Shown here piece by piece: positions 16,011-60,653 of a stretch of 64,000 nucleotides of DNA (positions are counted from its first letter, which is position 1; every line of letters begins with the position of its first letter). The position numbers and the translations under genes were made by a program. Source of the stretch: Eledone cirrhosa (lineage: Eukaryota); NCBI GenBank assembly GCA_964016885.1, contig OZ024750.1, forward strand, positions 35,402,001-35,466,000. Direction: 5' to 3'. The notes beneath the pieces are model-generated. The model was not told where the DNA came from and made no database searches. It saw nothing but the letters and a program-made list of their open reading frames with translations.

Positions 16011-16252
16011 ATATCTATATATATATATCTATATATGTATAGGAAGACACAAAGCAGGCTTTGTTTATGAACGGCTAACAAATTTGTGTATTGGTAACAC
16101 ATTGGTCCAGCAAACCAAAGATGTGGGTTAGTGCCCCATGTATGGCAATACTCATCCTTTTTTTCTATTCAGAGGGGTTTTTTTAAATCCCAACTAACAG
16201 ACTAATTCAATTTAGTCAAATACGTTGTAAGCATGTTACTACCTAATTTATA

Positions 16253-21094: not shown

Positions 21095-24000
21095 TTTTAC
21101 ATTGTAACATACATGTTTTTCTATATTATCCATACATCTATAACATCAAACTGTAGAGAGCTATACCTCACACTAAACTGTAACATAGTTTTTCTATATT
21201 ATCCAGACATCTACAACATCAAACTGTAGACAGCTATACCTCACACTAAACAGTAACATAGTTTTTCTATATTATCCAGACATCTACAACATCAAACTAT
21301 AGACAGCTATACCTCACACTAAACTGTAACATAGTTTTTCTATATTATCCATACATCTATAACATCAAACTGTAGACAGCTATACCTCACAGTAAACTGT
21401 AACATATAGTTTTTCTATATTATCCATACATCTACAACATCAAACTATAGACAGCTATACCTCACACTAAACTGTAACATATAGTTTTTCTATATTATCC
21501 ATACATCTACAACATCAAACTGTAGACAGCTATACCTCACACTAAACTGTAACATATAGTTTTTCTATATTAACCATACATCTATAACATCAAACTGTAG
21601 ACAGCTATACCTCACACTAAACTGTAACATATAGTTTTTCTATTTTAACCATACATCTATAACATCAAACTGTAGACAGCTATACCTCACACTAAACTGT
21701 AACATATAGTTTTTCTATATTAACCATACATCTATAACATCAAACTGTAGACAGCTATACCTCACACTAAACTGTAACATATAGTTTTTCTATATTATCC
21801 ATACATCTATAACATCAAACTGTAGACAGCTATACCTCACACTAAACTGTAACATATAGTTTTTCTATATTATCCATACATCTATAACATCAAACTGTAG
21901 ACAGCTAAACCTCACACTAAACTGTAACATATAGTTTTTCTATATTATCCAGACATCTACAACATCAAACTGTAGACAGCTATGCCTCACACTAAACTGT
22001 AACATATAGTTTTTTCTATATTAACCATACATCTACAACATCAAACTGTAGACAGCTATGCCTCACACTAAACTGTAACATATAGTTTTTCTATATTAAC
22101 CATACATCTACAACATCAAACTATAGACAGCTATACCTCACACTAAACTGTAACATATAGTTTTTCTATATTAACCATACATCTATAACATCAAACTGTA
22201 GACAGCTATACCTCACACTAAACTGTAACATATAGTTTTTCTATATTAACCATACATCTATAACATCAAACTATAGACAGCTATACCTCACACTAAACTG
22301 TAACATATAGTTTTTCTATATTAACCATACATCTATAACATCAAACTGTAGACAGCTATGCCTCACACTAAACTGTAACATATAGTTTTTCTATATTAAC
22401 CATACATCTATAACATCAAACTGTAGACAGCTATGCCTCACACTAAACTGTAACATATAGTTTTTCTATATTAACCATACATCTATAACATCAAACTGTA
22501 GACAGCTATGCCTCACACTAAACTGTAACATATAGTTTTTCTATATTATCCATACATCTACAACATCAAACTGTAGACAGCTATACCTCACACTAAACTG
22601 TAACATACAGTTTTTCTATATTATCCATACATCTACAACATCAAACTGTAGACAGCTATACCTCACACTAAACTGTAACATATAGTTTTTCTATATTAAC
22701 CATACATCTACAACATCAAACTATAGACAGCTATACCTCACACTAAACTGTAACATATAGTTTTTCTATATTATCCATACATCTACAACATCAAACTGTA
22801 GACAGCTATACCTCACACTAAACTGTAACATAGTTTTTCTATATTATCCATACATCTACAACATCAAACTGTAGACAGCTATACCTCACACTAAACTGTA
22901 ACATATAGTCTTTCTATATTATCCATACATCTATAACATCAAACTGTAGACAGCTATACCTCACACTAAACTGTAACAACTAGTTTTTTTATATTATCCA
23001 TACATCTACAACATCAAACTGTAGACAGCTATACCTCACACTAAACTGTAACATATAGTTTTTCTATATTAACCATACATCTATAACATCAAACTGTAGA
23101 CAGCTATACCTCACACTAAACTGTAACATATAGTTTTTCTATTTTAACCATACATCTATAACATCAAACTGTAGACAGCTATACCTCACACTAAACTGTA
23201 ACATATAGTTTTTCTATATTAACCATACATCTATAACATCAAACTGTAGACAGCTATACCTCACACTAAACTGTAACATATAGTTTTTCTATATTAACCA
23301 TACATCTATAACATCAAACTGTAGACAGCTATACCTCACACTAAACTGTAACATATAGTTTTTCTATATTATCCATACATCTATAACATCAAACTGTAGA
23401 CAGCTATACCTCACACTAAACTGTAACATATAGTTTTTCTATATTATCCATACATCTATAACATCAAACTGTAGACAGCTAAACCTCACACTAAACTGTA
23501 ACATATAGTTTTTCTATATTATCCAGACATCTACAACATCAAACTGTAGACAGCTATGCCTCACACTAAACTGTAACATATAGTTTTTCTATATTAACCA
23601 TACATCTACAACATCAAACTGTAGACAGCTATGCCTCACACTAAACTGTAACATATAGTTTTTCTATATTAACCATACATCTACAACATCAAACTATAGA
23701 CAGCTATACCTCACACTAAACTGTAACATATAGTTTTTCTATATTAACCATACATCTATAACATCAAACTGTAGACAGCTATGCCTCACACTAAACTGTA
23801 ACATATAGTTTTTCTATATTAACCATACATCTATAACATCAAACTGTAGACAGCTATGCCTCACACTAAACTGTAACATATAGTTTTTCTATATTAACCA
23901 TACATCTATAACATCAAACTGTAGACAGCTATGCCTCACACTAAACTGTAACATATAGTTTTTCTATATTATCCATACATCTACAACATCAAACTGTAGA

Positions 24001-29002: not shown

Positions 29003-29256
29003 AATTACAACAGTGGTCCATTCCAGACAGTCTGGAATTTGCTGCCAAAACAGCAAGAGCTCAGCTGTTGGGCCCCAACTCTCTAATATATTTACACTCT
29101 ACTATACCAAGTATCAAGTACTCTGCTGAAAATAGTATTAGTTGTTTAAAACTGATAAAATCTTGATCTATATATGTATATATATGTGTGTGTATATATT
29201 TAACATCCACTTATGTATGTGTTTGTGTATGTATATATGTATATATATATATATAA

Positions 29257-29516
29257 ATGTAAGTATAGTATATTTGGCAATATGCCGTATGTTTAATTAA
29301 AAACATTTTGAAGACTATGTCACTTACTTCTTTTTGCAGCAAAAGAAGGGAGAGAAGCTGACAGATTCTGTTTCACATTGTTGGTGATCCTCAGAGCAAC
29401 GTACTCCCCGCCTCTGCCAAAAATTATAGAGGCTGGATTCTTGTAGAATTTCAGTAATAATCAAGAACTGATTTAATTAAACATACGGTATATTGCCAAA
29501 TATACTATACATACAT
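29257..29516 (-). mobile_element. short Penelope-like/retrozyme-like element with ~45-bp terminal inverted repeats
   Basis: AATGTAAGTATAGTATATTTGGCAATATGCCGTATGTTTAATTAAA / TTTAATTAAACATACGGTATATTGCCAAATATACTATACATACATT; internal hammerhead motif; (TA)n flank. Confidence 0.65.
29357..29397 (-). ncRNA. minimal type I hammerhead ribozyme candidate
   Basis: GCU-CUGAGGA-UCACCAACAAUGU-GAAA-CAG-AAU-CUG-UC-AGC: intact core, stem III closing on a GUC triplet, 3-bp stem I, weak stem II. Confidence 0.6.
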
Positions 29517-29534
29517 TCCTGTATACATCACTAT

Positions 29535-31416
29535 TACCTGGATGCGGTGCTCGAGGCGGCAGGCTTCGGACTCGTGTTCAGGGGCTGAATTGCTGCAATG
29601 CACAACAGCAACATCTGCTCAAGGGTCAAGGTGAACGGCTACCTCTCGGAGCCGTTCCATATCACGCGATCCATTCGACAGGGATGCCCTCTCTCCTCCC
29701 TTTTGTACGTATTGACTCTCGAGCCACTAATGCGGAAGTTAGAGCTATTGCAGGGCATCCCTCTGGAACCGGGACTGCGGAAAGCGGCGTCGGCCTATGC
29801 CGACGACGTGACAACAATGGTATCGAGCGCCTCGCAAATCGAGGAAGTCAGCACCTTACTGAAGGAATACGAAAGTTTCACAGGAGCGAAGCTGAACCGG
29901 GACAAGTCCATTGGTTTGCAACTCGGATCGTGGAGAGGCAAACCGATGCCTTCCGATGGCGTCATCGGACGCTGGACGGAAGGACCGGTAAAGCTGCTTG
30001 GAGTCTGGTTTGGTCCGGACCTCCAGGTTGAAAAGAACTGGAACGAGGTGACAGCCAAGGTGTTTGCACTCACCAAGAAGTGGGCCGAGTGCAAACTATC
30101 CTTCAAAGGTCGAGCGGAGGTGGCGAACCCTTTTATAGCGTCCGCCATCTACTACCGTTTGACCGCCGTGCCTTGTCCAGCCAAAACGCTCGCCAAAATG
30201 GAGCGCGCGCTCTTCCAATTCCTTTGGAAGAGGCGGGCTCCTTTGGTGAGAAGATCCATCTGCTGCCAACACCCTTCCAACGGAGGGCTGGGGATGCCGT
30301 GGCTGACGATGCGCAAACACGTGCTCAGCTTGCGGAATCTATACGTATTCCTCACCGGACAACCAGTGTGGGCCCCGTTCGTGAGGCGAGCCTTCCTATG
30401 ACTAATCTCACTGACCGAGCTGCAGTCCTGGGTCAAGCAAAGACCGAGGAAAATGGGCGACTGGCACATAGAATCTGCTCAGGCACTCATAGCCCTCTGG
30501 CAGGCGGACCCGGCGATCAGCGGAGACTCCACTTTGTCATTCTATTGAGGGTTGATCCGCAGCAAGTGCGACGACGTGCTCGGTGAAACTCTAGGCATAG
30601 AGGAAGACAAACTGGCTGGTCTGTTTGGTAAGACCTTCCGCCCAGGACCGATGGACAACTTCCAAAAGTCCCTGGCCTGGCAGTGCTACCGAGGAGCTCT
30701 ACCAGTTCGTGACAAGCTCTACAGACATGGGCGCCCGGGCAGGGACCTTGCAAAAAAGATCTGTCCGAGGTGCATGCGAGACGAAGAAACCGTCGCACAC
30801 GCATTCATACACTGCCTGGGCATCACCGACCTGTGGGGCTATGTAGAACGACAATTGTCGCGGGTGGGACCAATCCGGTTGACCACCGAGTCCATTGTCA
30901 TGATCAAACCGCCACCCTCCTTCAAAAACGAAGGAGAGGCGGTTTTCCTTTGTGTGATAGCTATGGTGAAAGAGGTTGTATGGTGGACAAGGTTGAAAGG
31001 GTTGAGGTCAGACACCTTTCTCTCCGGCCAACAACTGATTCTTTTTTTCAAATACCACTTTGGAAGAAGAATCAAGATGGAGAGAGAGGTGCTGTACCCC
31101 AGCAAGTTTTATGAAAGGTGGGTGAAAGTGGCGAGAATGGCCCGAGTGAATGGGCCTTCTCTCTATATCAGCCTGTAGGTTGAGGAAAAAGAGGAGGAGA
31201 GGAAAGGAGTACAAACTCTTCGTACTCCTGGAGATGAGGGTTGCACATTTTTTTTCGGGGGTATGTGTTACCCATATGTAATGTCTCCCCCTATTGGGGA
31301 AAATCGACTAATTTTTAAATTGCATTTGTGATAATATTTTACACGTTTTTATTGTATGTAAACTTCCCCCTTTGTATTTTTCCCCTTCTTTTGTGCCCCT
31401 GTGGCTAATAAAGAAA
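29535..31416 (+). mobile_element. 5'-truncated L1/Tx1-clade non-LTR retrotransposon (RT + zf-RVT), pseudogenised
   Basis: RSIRQGCPLSSLLY, AYADD, KLLGVWFG, GGLGMP and the C-terminal CPRC..EETVAHAFIHC zinc knuckle; in-frame stops near 29586, 30399 and 30546; the 3' UTR ends AATAAAGAAAC then (AT)n; much higher GC than the flanks. Confidence 0.92.
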
Positions 31417-31667: not shown

Positions 31668-32020
31668 CATCATTTCATTTCATCATCATCATTTCATTTT
31701 ACATCCGCTTTTCTCTGCTTGCAAGGGTGGGACGGGAACTGATTCTGGCTTGATTTCTACAGCTGGATGCCCTTCCTAACACCAACCTCATTTACAGTGA
31801 GTGCTGGGTGCCTTTTTGCCGTGGCGCCCCCACAACCACTTTGCAGTGGAATGATAGGGACCCTAGTCCCTATCATCTCATTTCTACAGCTGAGTAAACT
31901 GGAGCAATGTGAAATAAAGTGTCTTGCTCAAGGAAACAACACATCACCCGGTCTGAGAATTGAACTCACAACCTTTTGATTGCAAGCCCAATGCTCTAAC
32001 CACTGAGCCGTGTGCCTCCA
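31668..32020 (-). mobile_element. SINE family A, full length
   Basis: Reverse complement of 17421-17750. Confidence 0.9.
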
Positions 32021-32728: not shown

Positions 32729-33685
32729 TTTGATAATGATAATGATAATGAAATTATTGTGTAAAGTGCTCAGGTGCACTACAACTCGTCAAAGGTGTAT
32801 GTATAGTACATAGAATAATACACAAATGTCAGGGAAGTTAATAGTGTATGAGTCATGGTATACATGTGTGTATGTGTATGGAGGGGGAACATTAGCTGTA
32901 GTGTTGGCGGATCTCGGGAAGTATAGTGGTTCCAAGTTTTATGGATGTTTTAAAGCAGAATTCTAGAATTTAAAAAAATTGTTTTAAATAATACATGAAG
33001 TTTTCCTTAAAAATCAGAAATATTTTTAAATGTAACAAAATATTCTAACTTGAATGTTAACTTTGGAATGTAATTGTAACTCTTTGAAATATATGCTTTT
33101 CGAAGAAATATATTGTAAATTTATTCAGCACCAGTCTTTTTATATTTTACTGTCGGTTTTATAAAATTGCTTGTCTGGATTCCGGGACAATGTTACCCAC
33201 AAAATGTTGAGTGCAAGTTCTGAACAAAATCTCTATGATCAAAATAAAATGAAGAATATATCTAAGTGTTATTAAACCAAAAAGACTTTAAATTATAGTA
33301 TTTGAAATGAAACATTACAGTATAGAATCAAAAGAAAATAACATATAAAATGTTTATAGAAAAGGAAAATATAGAAATATAAATAGAAATACATGTAAAC
33401 TGATAAATTAGCTAGTAAAATTCATATGTTAAGAAAGAAAAACATTAGTAAAGGCAAGAACAAAACAGACAGAACAGGAGAAAAAAATACATTATTTGGA
33501 AATGAAAAGCCAATGTCTATCTATAAACAGTATCAATATTCTATTTAAAGATCAAAGAAATCACTGTTTCACTTGGCACCTTTGTATCAGCATATTTATT
33601 AGATAATTTCCATTAATGTCTAGAAAATCTAATTCTGAAATAGTTATCAGAAAATTTATTCAAAACTTCACGCAAGGATTAAAAT

Positions 33686-46426: not shown

Positions 46427-46808
46427 TGTTTCTTTATTAGCCACAGGGGCACAAAAGAAGGGGACAAATACAAAGGGGGAAGTTTACATACAATGTAAAC
46501 ATACGTGTAAAATGTTATCACAAATGCAATTTAAAAAATTAGTCGATATTCCCCAATAGGGGGAGACATTACATATGGGTAACACATACCCCCGAAAAAA
46601 AATGTGCAACCCTCATCTCCAGGAGTACGAAGAGTTTGTACTCCTTTCCTCTCCTCCTCCTTTTCCTCAACCTACAGACTGATATAGAGAGAAGGCCCAT
46701 TCACTCGGGCTATTCTCGCCACTTTCACCCACCTTTCATAAAACTTGCTGGGGTACAGCACCTCTCTCTCCATCCTGATTCTTCTTCCAAAGTGGTATTT
46801 GAAAAAAA
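46427..46808 (-). mobile_element. 3' end of the Tx1/L1-type LINE inserted in a (GATA)n tract
   Basis: Near-identical reverse complement of 31042-31416 (FFKYHFGRRIRMEREVLYPSKFYERW..SL* plus UTR). Confidence 0.95.
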
Positions 46809-47485
46809 AAAAATAGGTATATAGATAGGTAGATAGATAGGTAGATATATCGATTGATAGGTTATTTAAATAGATAGATAAATAGATAAAATACATAGAT
46901 AAGTAGATAGATCAATAGATAGATAAATTAAATAGATAGATTAGATAAATAGGTAGATAGATCAATAATTGAGAAAGATAGATTGATTTGGAGGATTGAC
47001 TGAGATAGCAGTGTATTAAATGCAAAACTACATTTAGTTTTGTCCTCCATGGTTTTGAATTCAAATCCTGCCTTTAAACTTTTGTCACTCTTCTGCTTCA
47101 ATAAAACACGTATCAGTAGTGCACTAGAGTTCACTCCAGTCAGTAAACCCTTCTCTTGTGAAACTAGAAATTGGCCTTATGCCTGAATAAGTAATCAATA
47201 TTATATTGAGAGAGGAATATAAAGAATATATAATTAGATTGTTGAAATTAGTATTATGTTAATGGAGATTTATCGTTACTTACTATATATAGGCTATTGG
47301 TGGAGTCATTAAAATGTTTGATAGAATACTTTGTGGTATTTGTTTCTGCTCTCTTCTATCTGAGTTTAAATGTTGGTGAGGTCTACTTTGTCTTTTATTT
47401 ATTTCAGGTTGATAAATAAGTACCAGTCAAGTACACAGATCAATTCTTTCCTTTATATCTCTTTCTCCCTTCCATTTTCTCACTC

Positions 47486-47532
<47 letters not shown>

Positions 47533-47534
<2 letters not shown>

Positions 47535-47739
47535 CGAAGGAAATGTGGTAAGGAACCAGATGGACCATAACGCACCAAAGTACTGAATACTTAGGGTAGT
47601 AGAGTGGATAATAGGAACAAGTAAGACCCCGACGGCAGAGCTCAAGCCGTTTGGACGGCTAATTCTGGACATTTTTTTAGTCCAGAATTAGCCGTCGAAA
47701 CGGCTTGAGCTCTGCCGTCGGGGTCTTACTTGTTCCTAT
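47533..47739. mobile_element. palindromic short element in (TA)n with the 3' half of a hammerhead (family P, copy 1)
   Basis: 60-bp arms at 47611-47670 and 47680-47739 with one mismatch; contains GAAA-CGGC-TTGAGCTCT-GCCG-TC; other copies at 56108 and 60513. Confidence 0.8.
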
Positions 47740-47973
47740 ATATATATATATATCCTTCTCTGGAAGTTAAAAATACCTTAGAAATGCTATATGCCAATAC
47801 AGCACCCCTCCCAGGAGTTACAGGGCCATCCATTCAGGGAGGTTATGGCTAATACTATTATATAGTCTATGCAAAAGAAGAAAAAAATGCATATCTTACA
47901 CAGCTGTTTCTTTGGTGCTGAGACAGGTTATAAATATTTCTATACTGTTATACACCATCTCAATATCATTTCA

Positions 47974-54274: not shown

Positions 54275-54610
54275 TAGTGGAAGGTGCTCTGAAAGTACAG
54301 TAGCCAGAGTTAGAATGGGATGGAAAAAGTTCAGAGAGCTTATATCGCTGTTGGCCACAAAAGGTTTCTCTCTAAAAATGAAAAGCAGATTGTATGATGC
54401 CTGTATACAAACAGCAATGTTACATGGCAGTGAGACAGGCTGGAAAGGAATGAAGCATGCATGCTCCGTTGGATGTGTAATAGTAATATACACAAACGAT
54501 AAAACATAAATGAACTAAGTGAGAAATTAGGAATAAGAGGGATCAGATGCTGTTTACTCAAGAGAAGATTACGTTGGTATGGTCATGAGATGCGCATGAA
54601 AGATGACAAA
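54275..54610 (+). mobile_element. RTE fragment (inverted duplicate of 54675-55035)
   Basis: CSESTVARVRMGWKKFRELISLLATKG..; the reverse complement of the adjacent minus copy, with a ~30-bp deletion. Confidence 0.9.
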
Positions 54611-54669
54611 TACATACACACATATATATATGATGATATATATATAATAGTTTCTAATAGTTTCTATGT

Positions 54670-56100
54670 ATCTGTCGTCTTTCATGCGCATCATGTGACC
54701 ATACCAACGTAATCTTCTCTCAAGTAATCAGCATCTGATCCCTCTTATTCCTAATTTCTCACTTAGTTCATTTATGTTTTACCGTTCATGTATATTACTA
54801 TTACACAGCCAATGGAGCATGCATGCTTCATTCCTTTCCAGTCTGTGCAGGTCTTCTGCACACAATTTCCATGTCTCACTGCCATGTAACATAGCTGTTT
54901 GTATACAGGCATCATACAATCTGCCTTTCATATTTAGAGAGAAACCTTTAGCAGCCAATAGTGGTATAAGCTCTCTGAACTTTTTCCATCCCATTCTGAC
55001 TCTGGCGACTGTACTTTCAGAGCACTCTCCACCACTGCTGATTTTGTCACCCAGGTAACGGAAAGTGTCCACTATTTCTATAGAACCATCTGGGCAATAG
55101 AAGGAGCTAGTATCCGATAGGCACTTGCTACTTATTGCACCTGAGCATCGGCCACATATAAAATCTACATTTTTAGATAGCTTGCCTGTGATCCCACTAC
55201 ATCTTTTATGTACCCATAGTTTGCATTTGGAACATAAAATGAAATTTCTACTTACTGCTTTCCTATATAGTGAGCATGGCCATTTCTCAGAGGGCACCTG
55301 TGCCCTATTTTCCTTTCTACATACAAGAACTTTAGTCTTAAACAAGTTAACTTTAAGGCCTGTTGATTCTAAGCCATGCTTCCATGTTTGGAATTTCTTC
55401 TCTAGTTCAGCCATAGATTCAGCTATGAGAGTTAAATCATCTGCATATAGAAGTTCCCATGGGCAGCCAGTCTTAAACTCCTCTGTTATAGCCTGTAAGA
55501 TGATAATAAACAGGAGGGGGCTAAGGACAGAGCCTTGATGAACACCAACTTTTATGCTAAATTCTTCACTATATTCATTGTTAATTCTAACCTTGCTGAC
55601 TGTACATGGCTTATATAGCTCTCACAAGCCATTCATCTAGTCCTAGTTTTCTAAGGGACTACCAGATAATGGACTGTGGGACTCTGTCGAAGGCTTTCTC
55701 CAACTCAACATACTTCCAAGCCTGTTTTTTGGCTTTGATTGTCTCCTCTACCTTACTGTTCCACCACCAAGTTACTCTCCTCCTGCCTATAGGTCTGCTC
55801 CAGCCGCAGATTTCATCTGTTGCCTTCAGCAGGTTAACTTTCAGGAATTCCCACTGTTCCTCTATGTTGTACGTCTCTAATTGCTCTTCCTTACTGTCAA
55901 AAGCATCAAGTAATATGCTTTTAAATTTATCACTGGCTGTGGGCACCTTCAACTTCCATATTCTTCTCCTCAAGGTAGTCCTCCTCTGTTGTCGAGTATG
56001 TCTAGTCCTGACTATGATGTCACTAACTTCTTGGCTATGTTGGGAGGTACAATCATGGGGGGGACTTAGTGTTTACAACAGACACACTGTCACGTCTTCT
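54670..56100 (-). mobile_element. RTE LINE, internally deleted and 3'-truncated (APE end + RT + PHD)
   Basis: ORFs 55659-55973 (RRRIWKLK..WWWNSKV..AWK fused to LEKAFDRV) and 54779-55414 (KVNLFKTK..WVHKRC..FRYLG). Confidence 0.92.
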
Positions 56101-56107
56101 AATTTAA

Positions 56108-56256
56108 TTTCAACGGCTATTTCTGGACTCTGGAGTCCAGAAATAGCCGTCGAAACGGCTTGAGCTCTGCTGTTGGGGTTAAACATTTTCCTATTACCCA
56201 CTCTACTACCCTAAGTATTGAGTACTCTGGTGCGTTATGGTCCATCTGGTTCCTTT
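56108..56256 (+). mobile_element. family P element, copy 2
   Basis: ACGGCTATTTCTGGAC-TCTGGA-GTCCAGAAATAGCCGTC-GAAA-CGGC.. followed by the family body CCTATTACCCACTCTACTACCCTAAG.. Confidence 0.8.
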
Positions 56257-56384: not shown

Positions 56385-57671
56385 ATCATCATCATCATTG
56401 TTTAACGTCCATCTTCCACGGTTGCATGGGTTTCAACGGGAGTTTTCCCACTTGAGGCAAGAGTGGTTGTCTTGCTCGTATAGGCCTGTCTAGCGGATTT
56501 TCTACGGCTGGATGCCCTTCCTAACACCAACCACGTTTACAGTGAGGACTGGGAGGTTTTACCGTGTTACCTACACGGCCACATTACAGCGTGGACTGTG
56601 TGTTTTTTTGTCGTGACACCTACACAACCTCATTTGTTTCGGACTGGATGTTGTGGCACCAACATAACTTTAAATTGAAAAGGGTGGTGTGGATGGGGTG
56701 GGGGTAGTGGGACGGGTGTGTATTTTGTTAGAGGTGCCTACTGACTGTAGTAGGTTTCACTTTGTACTTAGGTAAGGCGGGTCTTCTGTATTACTGTGTA
56801 GCGCCAAAGATCTTGGTCCAGTGACATTGTCTTGGAGAGGTGTAAGTGTGTGAGGTCGGAATTTATCAGGTCGTCCCAGGTTTTTCTGGGTCTGCCTACT
56901 CCGTGGCTACCGACTATTTTTATTGCCCTGCACTTTTTTATACAGCTGTCGTCTTTCATGCGCATCACGTGACTGTACCAACGTAGTCTTCTCTTGAGTA
57001 AATAACATCTGATCCCTCTTATTTCTAATTTTTCCCTTAGTTCGTTTATGCTTTGCCGTTCATGTATATTACTATTACACATCCAGCGGAGCATGCAAGC
57101 TTCGTTCCTCTCCAGTCTGCGTATATCCTCTGCACACAATGCCCAGGTCTCACTGCCATGCAACATTGCTGTTCGTATGCAGGCATCATACAGCCTGCCT
57201 TTCATTTTTAGAGAGAACCCTTTAGCGGCTAATAGTGGTAAAAGCTCTCGGAACTTTTTCCATCCAGTTCTGACTCTAGCTACTGTACTTTCAGAGCACC
57301 CTCCACCACTGCTGATTTTGTCACCCAAGTAACGGAAGGTGTCCACTATTTCTATAGAACCATCTGTGCAATGGAATGAGCTAGTATTCAGTGGGCACTT
57401 GCTGCTACTTATTGCACCAGAGCACCGGCCACATATAAAATCTATATTCTTAGTTAGCTTACCTGTGATCCCACTACATCTTTTATGCACCCATACTTTG
57501 CATTTGGGACATAAAATAGAGTTTCTGCCTACTCCTTTCCTACACACTGAGCATGACCCTTTCCCGGATGGGACCGGTGCCCTATTTTCCTTCCTACAAA
57601 CTAGAACTTTAGTCTTAGACAGGTTAATTTTAAGGCCTTTTGATTCTAGGCCATGCTTCCATGTTTGGAAT
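56385..57671 (-). mobile_element. 5'-truncated RTE LINE with intact C-terminus and 3' UTR
   Basis: ORF 56768-57547 (PHD, FRYLG, RWYSHV, GRPRKTW, DQDLWR) plus 3' UTR and (GAT)n. Confidence 0.95.
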
Positions 57672-57776
57672 ATGTGTCACCAATCAATAAACATAATGAA
57701 GGCTTAACAAATCATCCTTGTATTATTATATATATATATTTGTTTTATATATTATTTATATACACACACACACACG

Positions 57777-57833
<57 letters not shown>

Positions 57834-57836
<3 letters not shown>

Positions 57837-59660
57837 ATTGTCGGGGAGAAGTGTGTACTTAACGATGACGGCATACTTGCCATCACCAACGCCGATAAGA
57901 AGGTAGCTTGGAAGTGTCACTATGAAAGGCTACTAAATGAGGAGAATAAATGGGAGAAAGACAGTCTCCCCCACATTGACCCAATAGAGGGACCAGCAGT
58001 GTTAGTCGAAGGTAGTATAATAAGTAAGGCAATCAAAGATATGAAGACAGGCAAGGCGACTGGGCCTTCGGAAATAGTTGCCGAGATGCTGAAGGCATCT
58101 GGTACGGTGGGACACACCATGGTCACCCGGATAGTCAACCAAGTCATACAGAATGGGGTTGTTCCGAAGGACTGGCGTAGCAGCATTATCGTTAACTGTT
58201 ATAAGGGTAAAGAAGATGCCCTAGATAGGAGTAACTATAGAGGCATTAAATTAATCGACCAGGTCATGAAGGTCACGGAAAAAGTAATAGCGCAACTAAT
58301 CAGAGAGAGAATTGATCTAGATGAAATGCAGTTCGGGTTTGTGTCAGGAAAAAGTACCACAGACGCTCTTTTCATTGTACGACAACTACAGGAGAAGTAC
58401 CTAGCTAAAAGTAAACCCCTATACTTAGCTTTCGTCGACTTGGAGAAGGCCTTCGACAGAGTCCCCCGTTCCATTATCTGGTGGGCTCTTAGAAAACTAG
58501 GTGTTGATGAATGGCTTGTGAGAGCTATACAAGCCATGTATAAAGAAACAGTCAGCAAGGTTAGAATTAACAACGAATATAGTGAAGAGTTTAGTGTAAA
58601 AGTTGGTGTTCATCAGAACTCTGTTCTTAGCCCCCTACTATTTATTATTGCCCTCCAGGCTATAACAGTGGAGTTCAAGACCGGCTGCCCATGGGAACTC
58701 CTATACGCAGATGATCTAACGCTCATAGCTGAATCAATGGCCGAGCTAGAGAAGAAATTCCAAACATGGAAGCACGGCCTAGAATCAAAAGGCCTTAAAA
58801 TTAACCTGGCTAAGACTAAAGTTCTAGTTTGTAAGAAAGAAAATAAGGCGGCGGTCCCCTCCGGGAAGTGGCCATGTGCAGAGTGTAGGAAAGGCGTAGG
58901 TAGAAATTCCATTTTGTGTCCCAAATGCAAAGTTTGGGTGCATAAAAGATGTAGTGGGATCACAGGTAAGCTAACTAAGAACATAGATTTTACATGTGGC
59001 CGGTGTTCTGGGGAAATAAGTAGCAGCAAGTGCCCACTGAATACTAGCTCTTTCAACTGCGCAGAGGGTTCTATAGAAATAGTGGACAGCTTCCGTTACC
59101 TGGGGGACAAAATCAGCAGTGGGGGAGGGTGCTCTGAAAGTACAGTAGCTAGAGTCAGAACTGGGTGGAAAAAGTTCAGAGAGCTTATACCACTATTAGC
59201 TGTTAAAGGGTTCTCCCTAAAAATGAAAAGCAGGCTGTACGATGCCTGCATACGAACAGCAATGTTGCATGGCAGTGAGACCTGGGCATTGTGTGCAGAG
59301 GATATACGCAGACAAGAGAGAAACGAAGCTTGCATGCTCCGCTGGATGTGTAATAGTAATATACGTGAACGACAAAGCATAAACGAACTAAGGAAAAAAT
59401 TAGAAATAAGAGGGATCAGATGTTGTTTACTAGAGAGAAGGCTACGTTGGTATGGTCACGTGATGTGCATGAAGGACGATAGCTGTATAACAAAGTGCAG
59501 GGCAATAAAGATAGACGGTAGCCACGGAATAGGCAGACCCAGAAAAACCTGGGACGAGCTGATAAACTCCGACCTCACACACTGACACCTCACCAAGACA
59601 ATGTCACTGGACCGAGACCTTTGGCGGTACTCAGTAATAGAGAAGACCTGCCTTACCTAA
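57834..59660 (+). pseudogene. RTE ORF2 remnant: reverse transcriptase with an inserted PHD-type zinc finger
   Basis: GKATGP, NYRGIKL, QFGF, FVDLEKAFDRVP, GVHQNSVLSPLLF, LYADD, KTK, FRYLG; premature TGA at 59583-59585, natural stop at 59658-59660 by comparison with the 56768 copy; no 5' end or APE domain. Confidence 0.92.
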
Positions 59661-60048
59661 ATACAAAGTAAAACCTACTACAGTCAGTAGGCATCTCTAA
59701 CAAAATACACCCCCGTCCCACCACCCCCACCCCGTCCACCGCCCCCTTCTATGTAAAGTTATGTTGGTGCCACACCATCCAGGCCGAAACAAATGAGATC
59801 GTGTAGGTGTCACGACAAAAAAACACACAGTCCACGCTGTAATGTGGCCGTGTAGGCAACACGGTAAAAACCTCCCAGACCCACACTGTAAATGTGGTTG
59901 GTGTTAGGAAGGGCATCCAACTGTAGAAAACCTGCCAGACAGTCCTATGCGAGCAAGACAATCACTCTTGCCTCAAGTGGGAATACCCCCGTCCAAACCC
60001 ATGCAAGCGTGGAACACGGACGTTAAACGTTGATGATGATGATGATGA

Positions 60049-60512: not shown

Positions 60513-60517
<5 letters not shown>

Positions 60518-60653
60518 AACCAGTAAGACCCCGACAGCTGAGCTCAAGCCGTTTCGACGGCTAATTCTGGACTATTACCCACTCTACTACCTCAAGTATT
60601 GAGTACTTTGGTGCGTTATGGTCCACCTGGTTCCTTACCACATTTCCTTCGTT
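60513..60653. mobile_element. family P element, copy 3 (inverted 5' arm joined to body)
   Basis: TAGGAAC..GCCGTTTCGACGGCTAATTCTGGAC joined to TATTACCCACTCTAC..CCTTCGTT; (TA)n on both sides. Confidence 0.8.

Follow-up and report, generated by a model that had tools for sequence, protein, structure and literature searches.

The window analyzed here (the whole stretch of 64,000 nucleotides from Eledone cirrhosa, to which all coordinates refer) is animal DNA with about 35% G+C, and it contains many microsatellites, satellites, and LINE fragments. Three of these fragments, at 57708-59585 on the forward strand and at 56768-57676 and 54779-55621 on the reverse strand, carry a PHD domain C-terminal to the reverse transcriptase (RT), with Pfam RVT_1 found in two of them and PHD in all three; we take them to be RTE-like. 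The segments 56680-57671 and 58757-59748 are inverted relative to each other over 992 nt, with 92% complementarity, and a 206-nt inverted repeat with no spacer (54435-54846, 88% complementary) overlaps the end of a LINE fragment and is another fold-back or inversion junction. A frameshifted LINE with RVT_1 and zf-RVT, presumably L1/Tx1-like, lies at 29477-31178 on the forward strand, with short related ends at 46531-46811. Satellite arrays start at 21181 (75-bp unit, 96-99% homogeneous) and at 33555 (25-bp unit, GC skew near -0.97), and two tRNA-like heads just above the Rfam gathering score, at 16086-16139 (forward) and 31953-32009 (reverse), are likely SINE heads.

Our subject is a short repeat family with a 138-bp body, which we number from the G of its initial GTCC, and whose 3′ end, TTCGTT, adjoins (TA)n. 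The first-pass annotation had described three copies sharing a body of ~150 bp. The three sites, 47533-47739, 56108-56256, and 60513-60653, are verified by alignment and BLAST within the window (E-values between copies of 1e-46 to 1e-15), and it is the length of the body that has to be corrected. A BLAST of these copies against the window finds a fourth, older one at 29030-29128, about 70% identical (E-value 1e-6).

Copy 1 contains the full body on the reverse strand (47533-47670, element positions 138 to 1), with its 5′ end GTCC at 47670. The outermost 78 nt of this body, 47533-47610 on the same strand, are what we call the tail, as judged by terminus usage in the sequencing runs, and its end, terminus A, adjoins (TA)n. 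Next comes a 9-nt filler, ATTTTTTTA (47671-47679), which separates two head-to-head 5′ ends and is likely untemplated; it is recognized from the alignment and from the heterogeneous loop lengths in the runs. A second arm follows on the forward strand (47680-47739, element positions 1-60), identical to the other arm at 59/60 positions and finishing at terminus B in (TA)n. The (TA)n target flanks the copy on the left at 47490-47532 and on the right at 47740-47753.

The other copies are variations on this arrangement, as placed by alignment. In copy 2, an inverted arm that abuts an AT-rich flank (56108-56128, reverse strand, element positions 21 to 1) is 20/21 identical to the copy's own forward part. 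Its filler, TCTGGA (56129-56134), repeats the arm end, possibly through slippage where the template ends, though 5-6 matching nt may also be chance, and its forward body (56135-56255) ends near the second TTCCT motif and adjoins another repeat. Copy 3 has an inverted arm that starts from terminus B in (TA)n (60513-60572, reverse strand, positions 60 to 1) and is joined directly, with no filler, to forward positions 58-138 (60573-60653), which run to terminus A in (TA)n. It is thus an in-place inversion without duplication, and the same type of joint (47613/47670) is seen in the sequencing runs. Copy 4, located by BLAST and alignment at 29020-29128 on the forward strand, has a 9-bp inverted arm (29020-29028), a 1-nt filler A, and a forward body from 29030.

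The inverted arms of all four copies end exactly at position 1, while their outer ends fall at 60, 21, 60, and 9 for copies 1 to 4. The arms within one copy are nearly identical (59/60 in copy 1, 20/21 in copy 2), whereas between copies the same stretch differs at 3-9 of 60 positions. Copies 1 and 3 each sit between two stretches of (TA)n, which would mask any target-site duplication. We also observe the motif TTCCT at element positions 54, 116, and 129, just upstream of terminus B, of the copy 2 end, and of terminus A, respectively; it is possibly an RT start signal.

To look at the family beyond the window, four public runs were aligned to 47523-47692 at 80% likeness: contigs from X1, X4, and X5, and raw RAD reads from X21, which is another sample with the same species label. 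There are 16,104 matching contigs in X1, 425 in X4, and 74 in X5, and 21,982 of the 12,467,656 raw RAD reads in X21 match; these are contig and read totals only, not copy numbers. The 138-bp repeat is very abundant. The alignments list 40 of 135 substitutions, 15 of 16 joints, and 24 of 418 loose ends, and our statements about each class refer to those listed.

The 5′ end of the family is fixed at (A)GTCC. Depth in X21 falls from 2188 at 47670 to 212 at 47671, 80 at 47672, and about 50 beyond, and the loose ends behind 47670 (988 reads with agreement 0.44, and 199 contigs with 0.41) are AT-rich, unrelated flanks. Read-through into a hairpin like that of copy 1 accounts for only some 2-4% of the depth in X21 and 5% in X1, with loop variants that leave out 1, 3, 6, or 7 nt or insert one T. 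Contigs break at hairpins, and inverted arms shorter than about 20 nt could hide in the loose ends. Counts near the 5′ end are moreover skewed, since the RAD library appears to cut at AATT within the element; a pile-up of 6691 read ends at 47664 falls on AATT, and we reject it as biology, taking it as the likely RAD restriction cut. A second terminus, at position 60 and joined to (TA)n, is found in 3672 reads and in 177 and 6 contigs, about one quarter of the local depth, and its (TA)n loose-end consensus has an agreement of 0.79.

Twelve of the 15 listed joints switch strands. One side of the joint is at position 0-1 in nine of them, and at 4, 6, and 12 in the others; that is, nine lie at most 1 bp, and all twelve at most 11 bp, from the GTCC start. 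The expectation that inversion centers would cluster at GGAC|GTCC is therefore borne out. The other side ranges over positions 37-100, with five of the twelve at 50-60. Compared with a uniform distribution, this clustering has p of about 1e-10 for the start side and 0.007 for the 50-60 side, values to be read with the caution that the listed joints may share descent and may not be independent. The remaining three listed joints are skips, two of which are of the same inversion type with filler.

What lies next to this fixed end? On the right arm of copy 1, at 47683-47723 on the forward strand, there is a decayed skeleton of a minimal type I hammerhead, which spans element positions 1 to 44. Its parts are an 8-nt core slot, CAGAATTA (47683-47690, element positions 4-11), then G-CCGT-C (47691-47696), GAAA (47697-47700), a stem III CGGC/GCCG with a GAGCTC palindrome in its loop, TC (47718-47719), and GGGG. 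The TC at the 5′ edge of the core slot can pair with the GG after the cleavage triplet. The 3′ half had already been read as hammerhead-like, and the string does exceed chance: GAAA plus a 4-bp stem plus TH occurs in 35 of 5000 dinucleotide shuffles, the same string plus a 6-nt loop palindrome in 3 of 5000, and the full minimal-hammerhead spacing in 2 of 20000, where the descriptors of both the 5000- and the 20000-shuffle tests had been fitted after the sequence had been seen. The full skeleton matches once in the window; copies 2 and 3 fail the strict descriptor on a G-U pair.

The first-pass annotation also had the CUGANGA 5′ half missing from every copy. It is true that there is no literal CTGANGA, but the half is not absent: a decayed core, CAGAATTA, sits within the body, before a stem II of 1 bp. 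Hammerhead variants with a 1-bp helix II have reportedly been described by Lunse et al. in 2017. The slot matches three of the six specified positions of the core C3 U4 G5 A6 N7 G8 A9, with U4, G8, and A9 non-canonical in the window copies. The rest of the skeleton is better preserved, and in the copy 1 right arm G10.1-C11.1, G12 A13 A14, A15.1-U16.1, H17, and helix III are all present; helix III has a G-U pair in copies 2 and 3, and helix I is weak (2-3 bp, including G-U). One loose-end consensus, behind 47665 (509 reads, agreement 0.41), starts with AGGAC, which amounts to CTGA at core positions 3-6, and such a CTGA sub-population suggests the decay of a real core. Among the X1 aligned differences listed (those of at least 1%), T>C and T>G are absent and A>C occurs once, at 47619. 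A canonical core is therefore not found there, in an alignment where strongly divergent ends would be clipped and variant cores could escape.

Judged by comparison with the canonical core, then, the family is not an active hammerhead. Rfam reports no hammerhead at the gathering score in the window, nor at E-values up to 10 around copy 1, where the only matches are sub-threshold hairpins and miRNAs. The stem III changes, CAGC/GCTG in copy 4 and GCTG in both copy 2 and copy 3, look like covariation, but they are of the CpG-decay type and we rejected them as such. Inspection by eye also led us to reject an HDV-like ribozyme at the element's fixed start: the first 7 nt have no downstream pairing partner. 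The minimal type I hammerheads of metazoan Penelope-like elements (PLEs) have, according to PMC4209133, an extra base between 9 and 10.1, a G10.1-C11.1 pair, and a palindromic loop 3. The family fits those three traits, and differs from these hammerheads in its helix II of 1 bp, instead of 6-8 bp, and in its non-canonical U4, G8, and A9.

This takes us to the kinship of the family. PLE traits, according to PMC8557442 and PMC3846280, include an inverted, 5′-truncated adjacent copy, a one-sided tail, and a preference for (TA)n targets. Here, a head-to-head inverted copy is present in all four window copies, with the 12 strand-switching joints among those listed adding to them; the two alternative 3′ termini, at positions 60 and 138, correspond to the optional feature of PLEs of a tail at one end, which here is 78 nt rather than the usual 30-40; and the insertion bias of EN+ PLEs toward (TA)n or AT-rich DNA is found as well. 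Compared with the EN+ PLE insertion units (PMC3846280, PMC8557442), the family shares the head-to-head inverted copy, the extension of one arm, the targets, and, toward the module's 5′ end, a hammerhead-like motif. It differs in having no ORF, a 5′ end that is fixed and not variably truncated, the longer tail (78 vs. 30-40 nt), and a catalytic core decayed family-wide. A Penelope-like origin, which had been suggested from the outset, is supported, as is the hammerhead ancestry of the skeleton; from this behavior we infer a PLE end module, for which no partner ORF was found.

A close parallel is Poseidon PAc of Anolis carolinensis. According to PMC11167929, the Anolis PLE protein cuts and extends both strands in vitro, two internal RT starts define the tail, and ribozyme cleavage is dispensable. 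As is proposed for our family, two RT starts downstream of the hammerhead bound the tail; unlike our family, PAc has an active ribozyme, an ORF that starts in stem II, and start sites 30-40 nt apart. For L1, the geometry of twin and dual priming is known (PMC2837659), and the likeness is in the inverted 5′ segment primed off the second target strand and in the small deletion or duplication at the joint, while in our family second priming would mostly fall at a single fixed site, and the inverted stretch reaches the fixed 5′ end. The animal non-LTR retrozymes, as described in the preprint bioRxiv 10.64898/2026.07.22.740005, include short, non-coding, PLE-related dispersed monomers derived from type I hammerheads. 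Our family, on the other hand, shows no tandem arrays and no intact ribozyme, has its ends off the cleavage site, and carries head-to-head inversions. A non-LTR retrozyme array was accordingly rejected: the copies are single, dispersed, and span the cut site, and there are no tandem joints or pile-up of ends at positions 40-41 among the joints and loose ends listed. Also rejected was a tRNA-derived SINE, with no tRNA-like head with A and B boxes.

We think that the family is probably a Penelope-like end module, and that its inverted heads come from two reverse-transcription events per insertion, a reading we hold with real reservations. The template RNA would start, or the RT would stop strongly, at the edge of stem I in the decayed ribozyme; the candidate reasons for the GTCC start are a transcription start, a splice boundary (as next to helix I in Penelope of D. 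virilis), or an RT stop. The TTAGTC context there is similar to an initiator motif. A PLE protein with GIY-YIG and RT domains, acting in trans, would nick both (TA)n strands. One nick would prime a cDNA at position 138. The other would do so at position 60 or, through microhomology, at another place (copy 2 being an example), and this cDNA would run to the 5′ end. Should the first cDNA stop near or before the second primer, the product would be an in-place inversion such as copy 3; should it also reach the 5′ end, the product would be a head-to-head palindrome with the tail on one side, as in copies 1, 2, and 4; and the use of a single nick would leave a plain copy. Short filler, T/A-rich or slipped, would connect the cDNA ends. 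Cleavage by the ribozyme likely plays no part, because the cut site lies within the copies and the core has decayed. Priming off both target strands would account for all the junction classes, and it matches the behavior of the Anolis PLE in vitro. Against it, no partner RT/GIY-YIG protein was found in the window, the tail is 78 nt vs. 30-40 nt in the PLEs described, and palindromes of the copy 1 type are equally compatible with cDNA fold-back.

Such fold-back is an account in which the module is the same, but the inverted arm arises when the 3′ end of the cDNA folds back and primes itself at the fixed 5′ end of the RNA, with no native stem II involved, and with resolution at position 60. It accounts for copies 1, 2, and 4, for the fixed center, for the arms that share alleles, and for the variable loops. 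It also has precedents in the literature: self-priming was proposed as a general source of PLE palindromes already in 2013 (PMC3846280), and the tail has been ascribed to resolution by the endonuclease (PMC8557442). We nevertheless consider it rather unlikely, in view of copy 3 and the 12 listed strand-switching joints, which have no hairpin and an arm intact to position 1, with resumption at 37-100. In six of the 12 listed joints the sequence resumes beyond the 60-bp arm, and a one-sided secondary deletion would be needed each time. The more specific mechanism of the first-pass annotation, in which a native 17-bp stem II, preceded in the RNA by the hammerhead's CUGANGA, gives the cDNA a hairpin on which to fold back, seems to us very improbable. 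It can claim the clustering of centers at GGAC|GTCC and the alleles shared by both arms in copies 2 and 4. With a native stem, however, one expects the loop and the upstream core to be conserved and plain copies to include the 5′ arm, none of which is seen, while a fixed template start with inversion at each insertion predicts arms that share alleles, unrelated fillers, and plain copies that start from GTCC, all of which are seen. The supposed stem is the inverted duplication itself, and its loop differs in every window copy (9, 6, and 1 nt, and none), unrelated even between copies that are 86-95% identical. The reads that reach the GTCC end mostly enter flanks (the 988 noted above) and not a hairpin, whose read-through stays at the few percent of depth already given. 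No CCCC-CTGANGA, or any other upstream consensus, appears among the 24 of 418 loose ends listed, and the core remnant and its 1-bp stem II are downstream of the inversion center. In copy 2 the arm goes on for 4 nt beyond the supposed stem II and so takes in the complement of GAAA; in copy 4 it measures only 9 bp. As for the stem change in copy 2, it is indeed on both arms, but it does not indicate compensatory selection: the T>A is a common allele of the body, at 30% of the X1 contig depth.

Two further explanations dispense with a PLE altogether. The family could be a SINE-like short RNA moved by a host LINE (RTE, CR1, or Tx1) with ordinary twin priming, its hammerhead likeness being a relic or chance, and we regard this as distinctly unlikely. 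A fixed 5′ start, a 3′ end joined to a simple repeat, and the many LINE RT fragments in a window where no PLE ORF was found all agree with it, but the sense strand has no B box, its one A-box-like string comes late and is mismatched, the element has no tRNA match in Rfam, one second terminus dominates in place of scattered internal priming, and a skeleton seen in so few shuffles is awkward for it. A non-autonomous DNA transposon, either a MITE or Helentron-like, with an internal palindrome and TA insertion, would explain the TA flanks plus the hairpin, and we find it scarcely credible. In copies 1 and 3 the outer ends do not form an inverted-repeat pair, which also disposes of the TIR transposon that had been named as the finding that would overturn the original proposal; the palindrome is internal, varies in length, and is often absent; and in-place inversions anchored at one end are a signature of retrotransposition.

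A protein partner for the two-strand priming that we favor was looked for in several places. The six window ORFs scanned contain no GIY-YIG (the domains found are RT, zf-RVT, and PHD, or nothing). The element's open sense frame of 45 aa matched none of eight candidate protein relatives at an E-value of 0.01, which is weak evidence. Four element motifs have no octopus match in two published supplements. Octopus Naiads were rejected as a partner on the basis of Naiad_Obim: its 3′ end is unlike the element, and the motif search of the Naiad supplement was negative. PLEs make up 6.83% of the O. vulgaris assembly, according to the PMC13282606 supplement. In the literature searched, which takes in few subscription journals and neither Repbase nor Dfam, neither this family nor PLE twin priming is the subject of any paper, and the family may already be present in repeat libraries beyond that literature. 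Exact-pattern scans of metagenome and viral contigs gave zero matches to the element.

The origin of the inverted ends and tails of PLEs, and the role of their hammerheads, is a live question (PMC8557442, PMC11167929). The architecture itself is already known, and self-priming has been published as an explanation; the ribozyme hairpin as the specific mechanism is unsupported. What this family offers is that, being short and abundant and having a fixed 5′ end, it shows all the types of junction together in short-read data. Since all the classes are visible together, one genome survey could separate twin priming from fold-back and show if catalysis is dispensable in vivo. A bolder proposition, which we advance tentatively and at less than even confidence, is that a non-coding Penelope-like mini-element without its hammerhead core has still spread widely, with a start that continues to coincide exactly with the edge of stem I. 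If true, the boundary would be set by a transcription start or an RT stop, and not by catalysis; the in-place inversions would be direct genomic proof that the inverted heads of PLEs come from priming on both target strands at the two RT starts that define the tail, and the choice between self-priming and twin priming would be settled for PLEs.

Finally, the family is not uniform. The loose end at 47617 marks a subfamily (1735 reads, agreement 0.71) in which the sequence 5′ of position 54 is different while the GAGCTC palindrome and GTC-GGGG are retained, and the loose end at 47544 marks one with a variant 3′ end (950 reads). The related species in X5 has a diverged form of the family, its 74 contigs being all less than 95% alike and mainly from the tail region 47554-47621, and one low-agreement loose-end consensus from it keeps the stem III strand and GTC-GGG.
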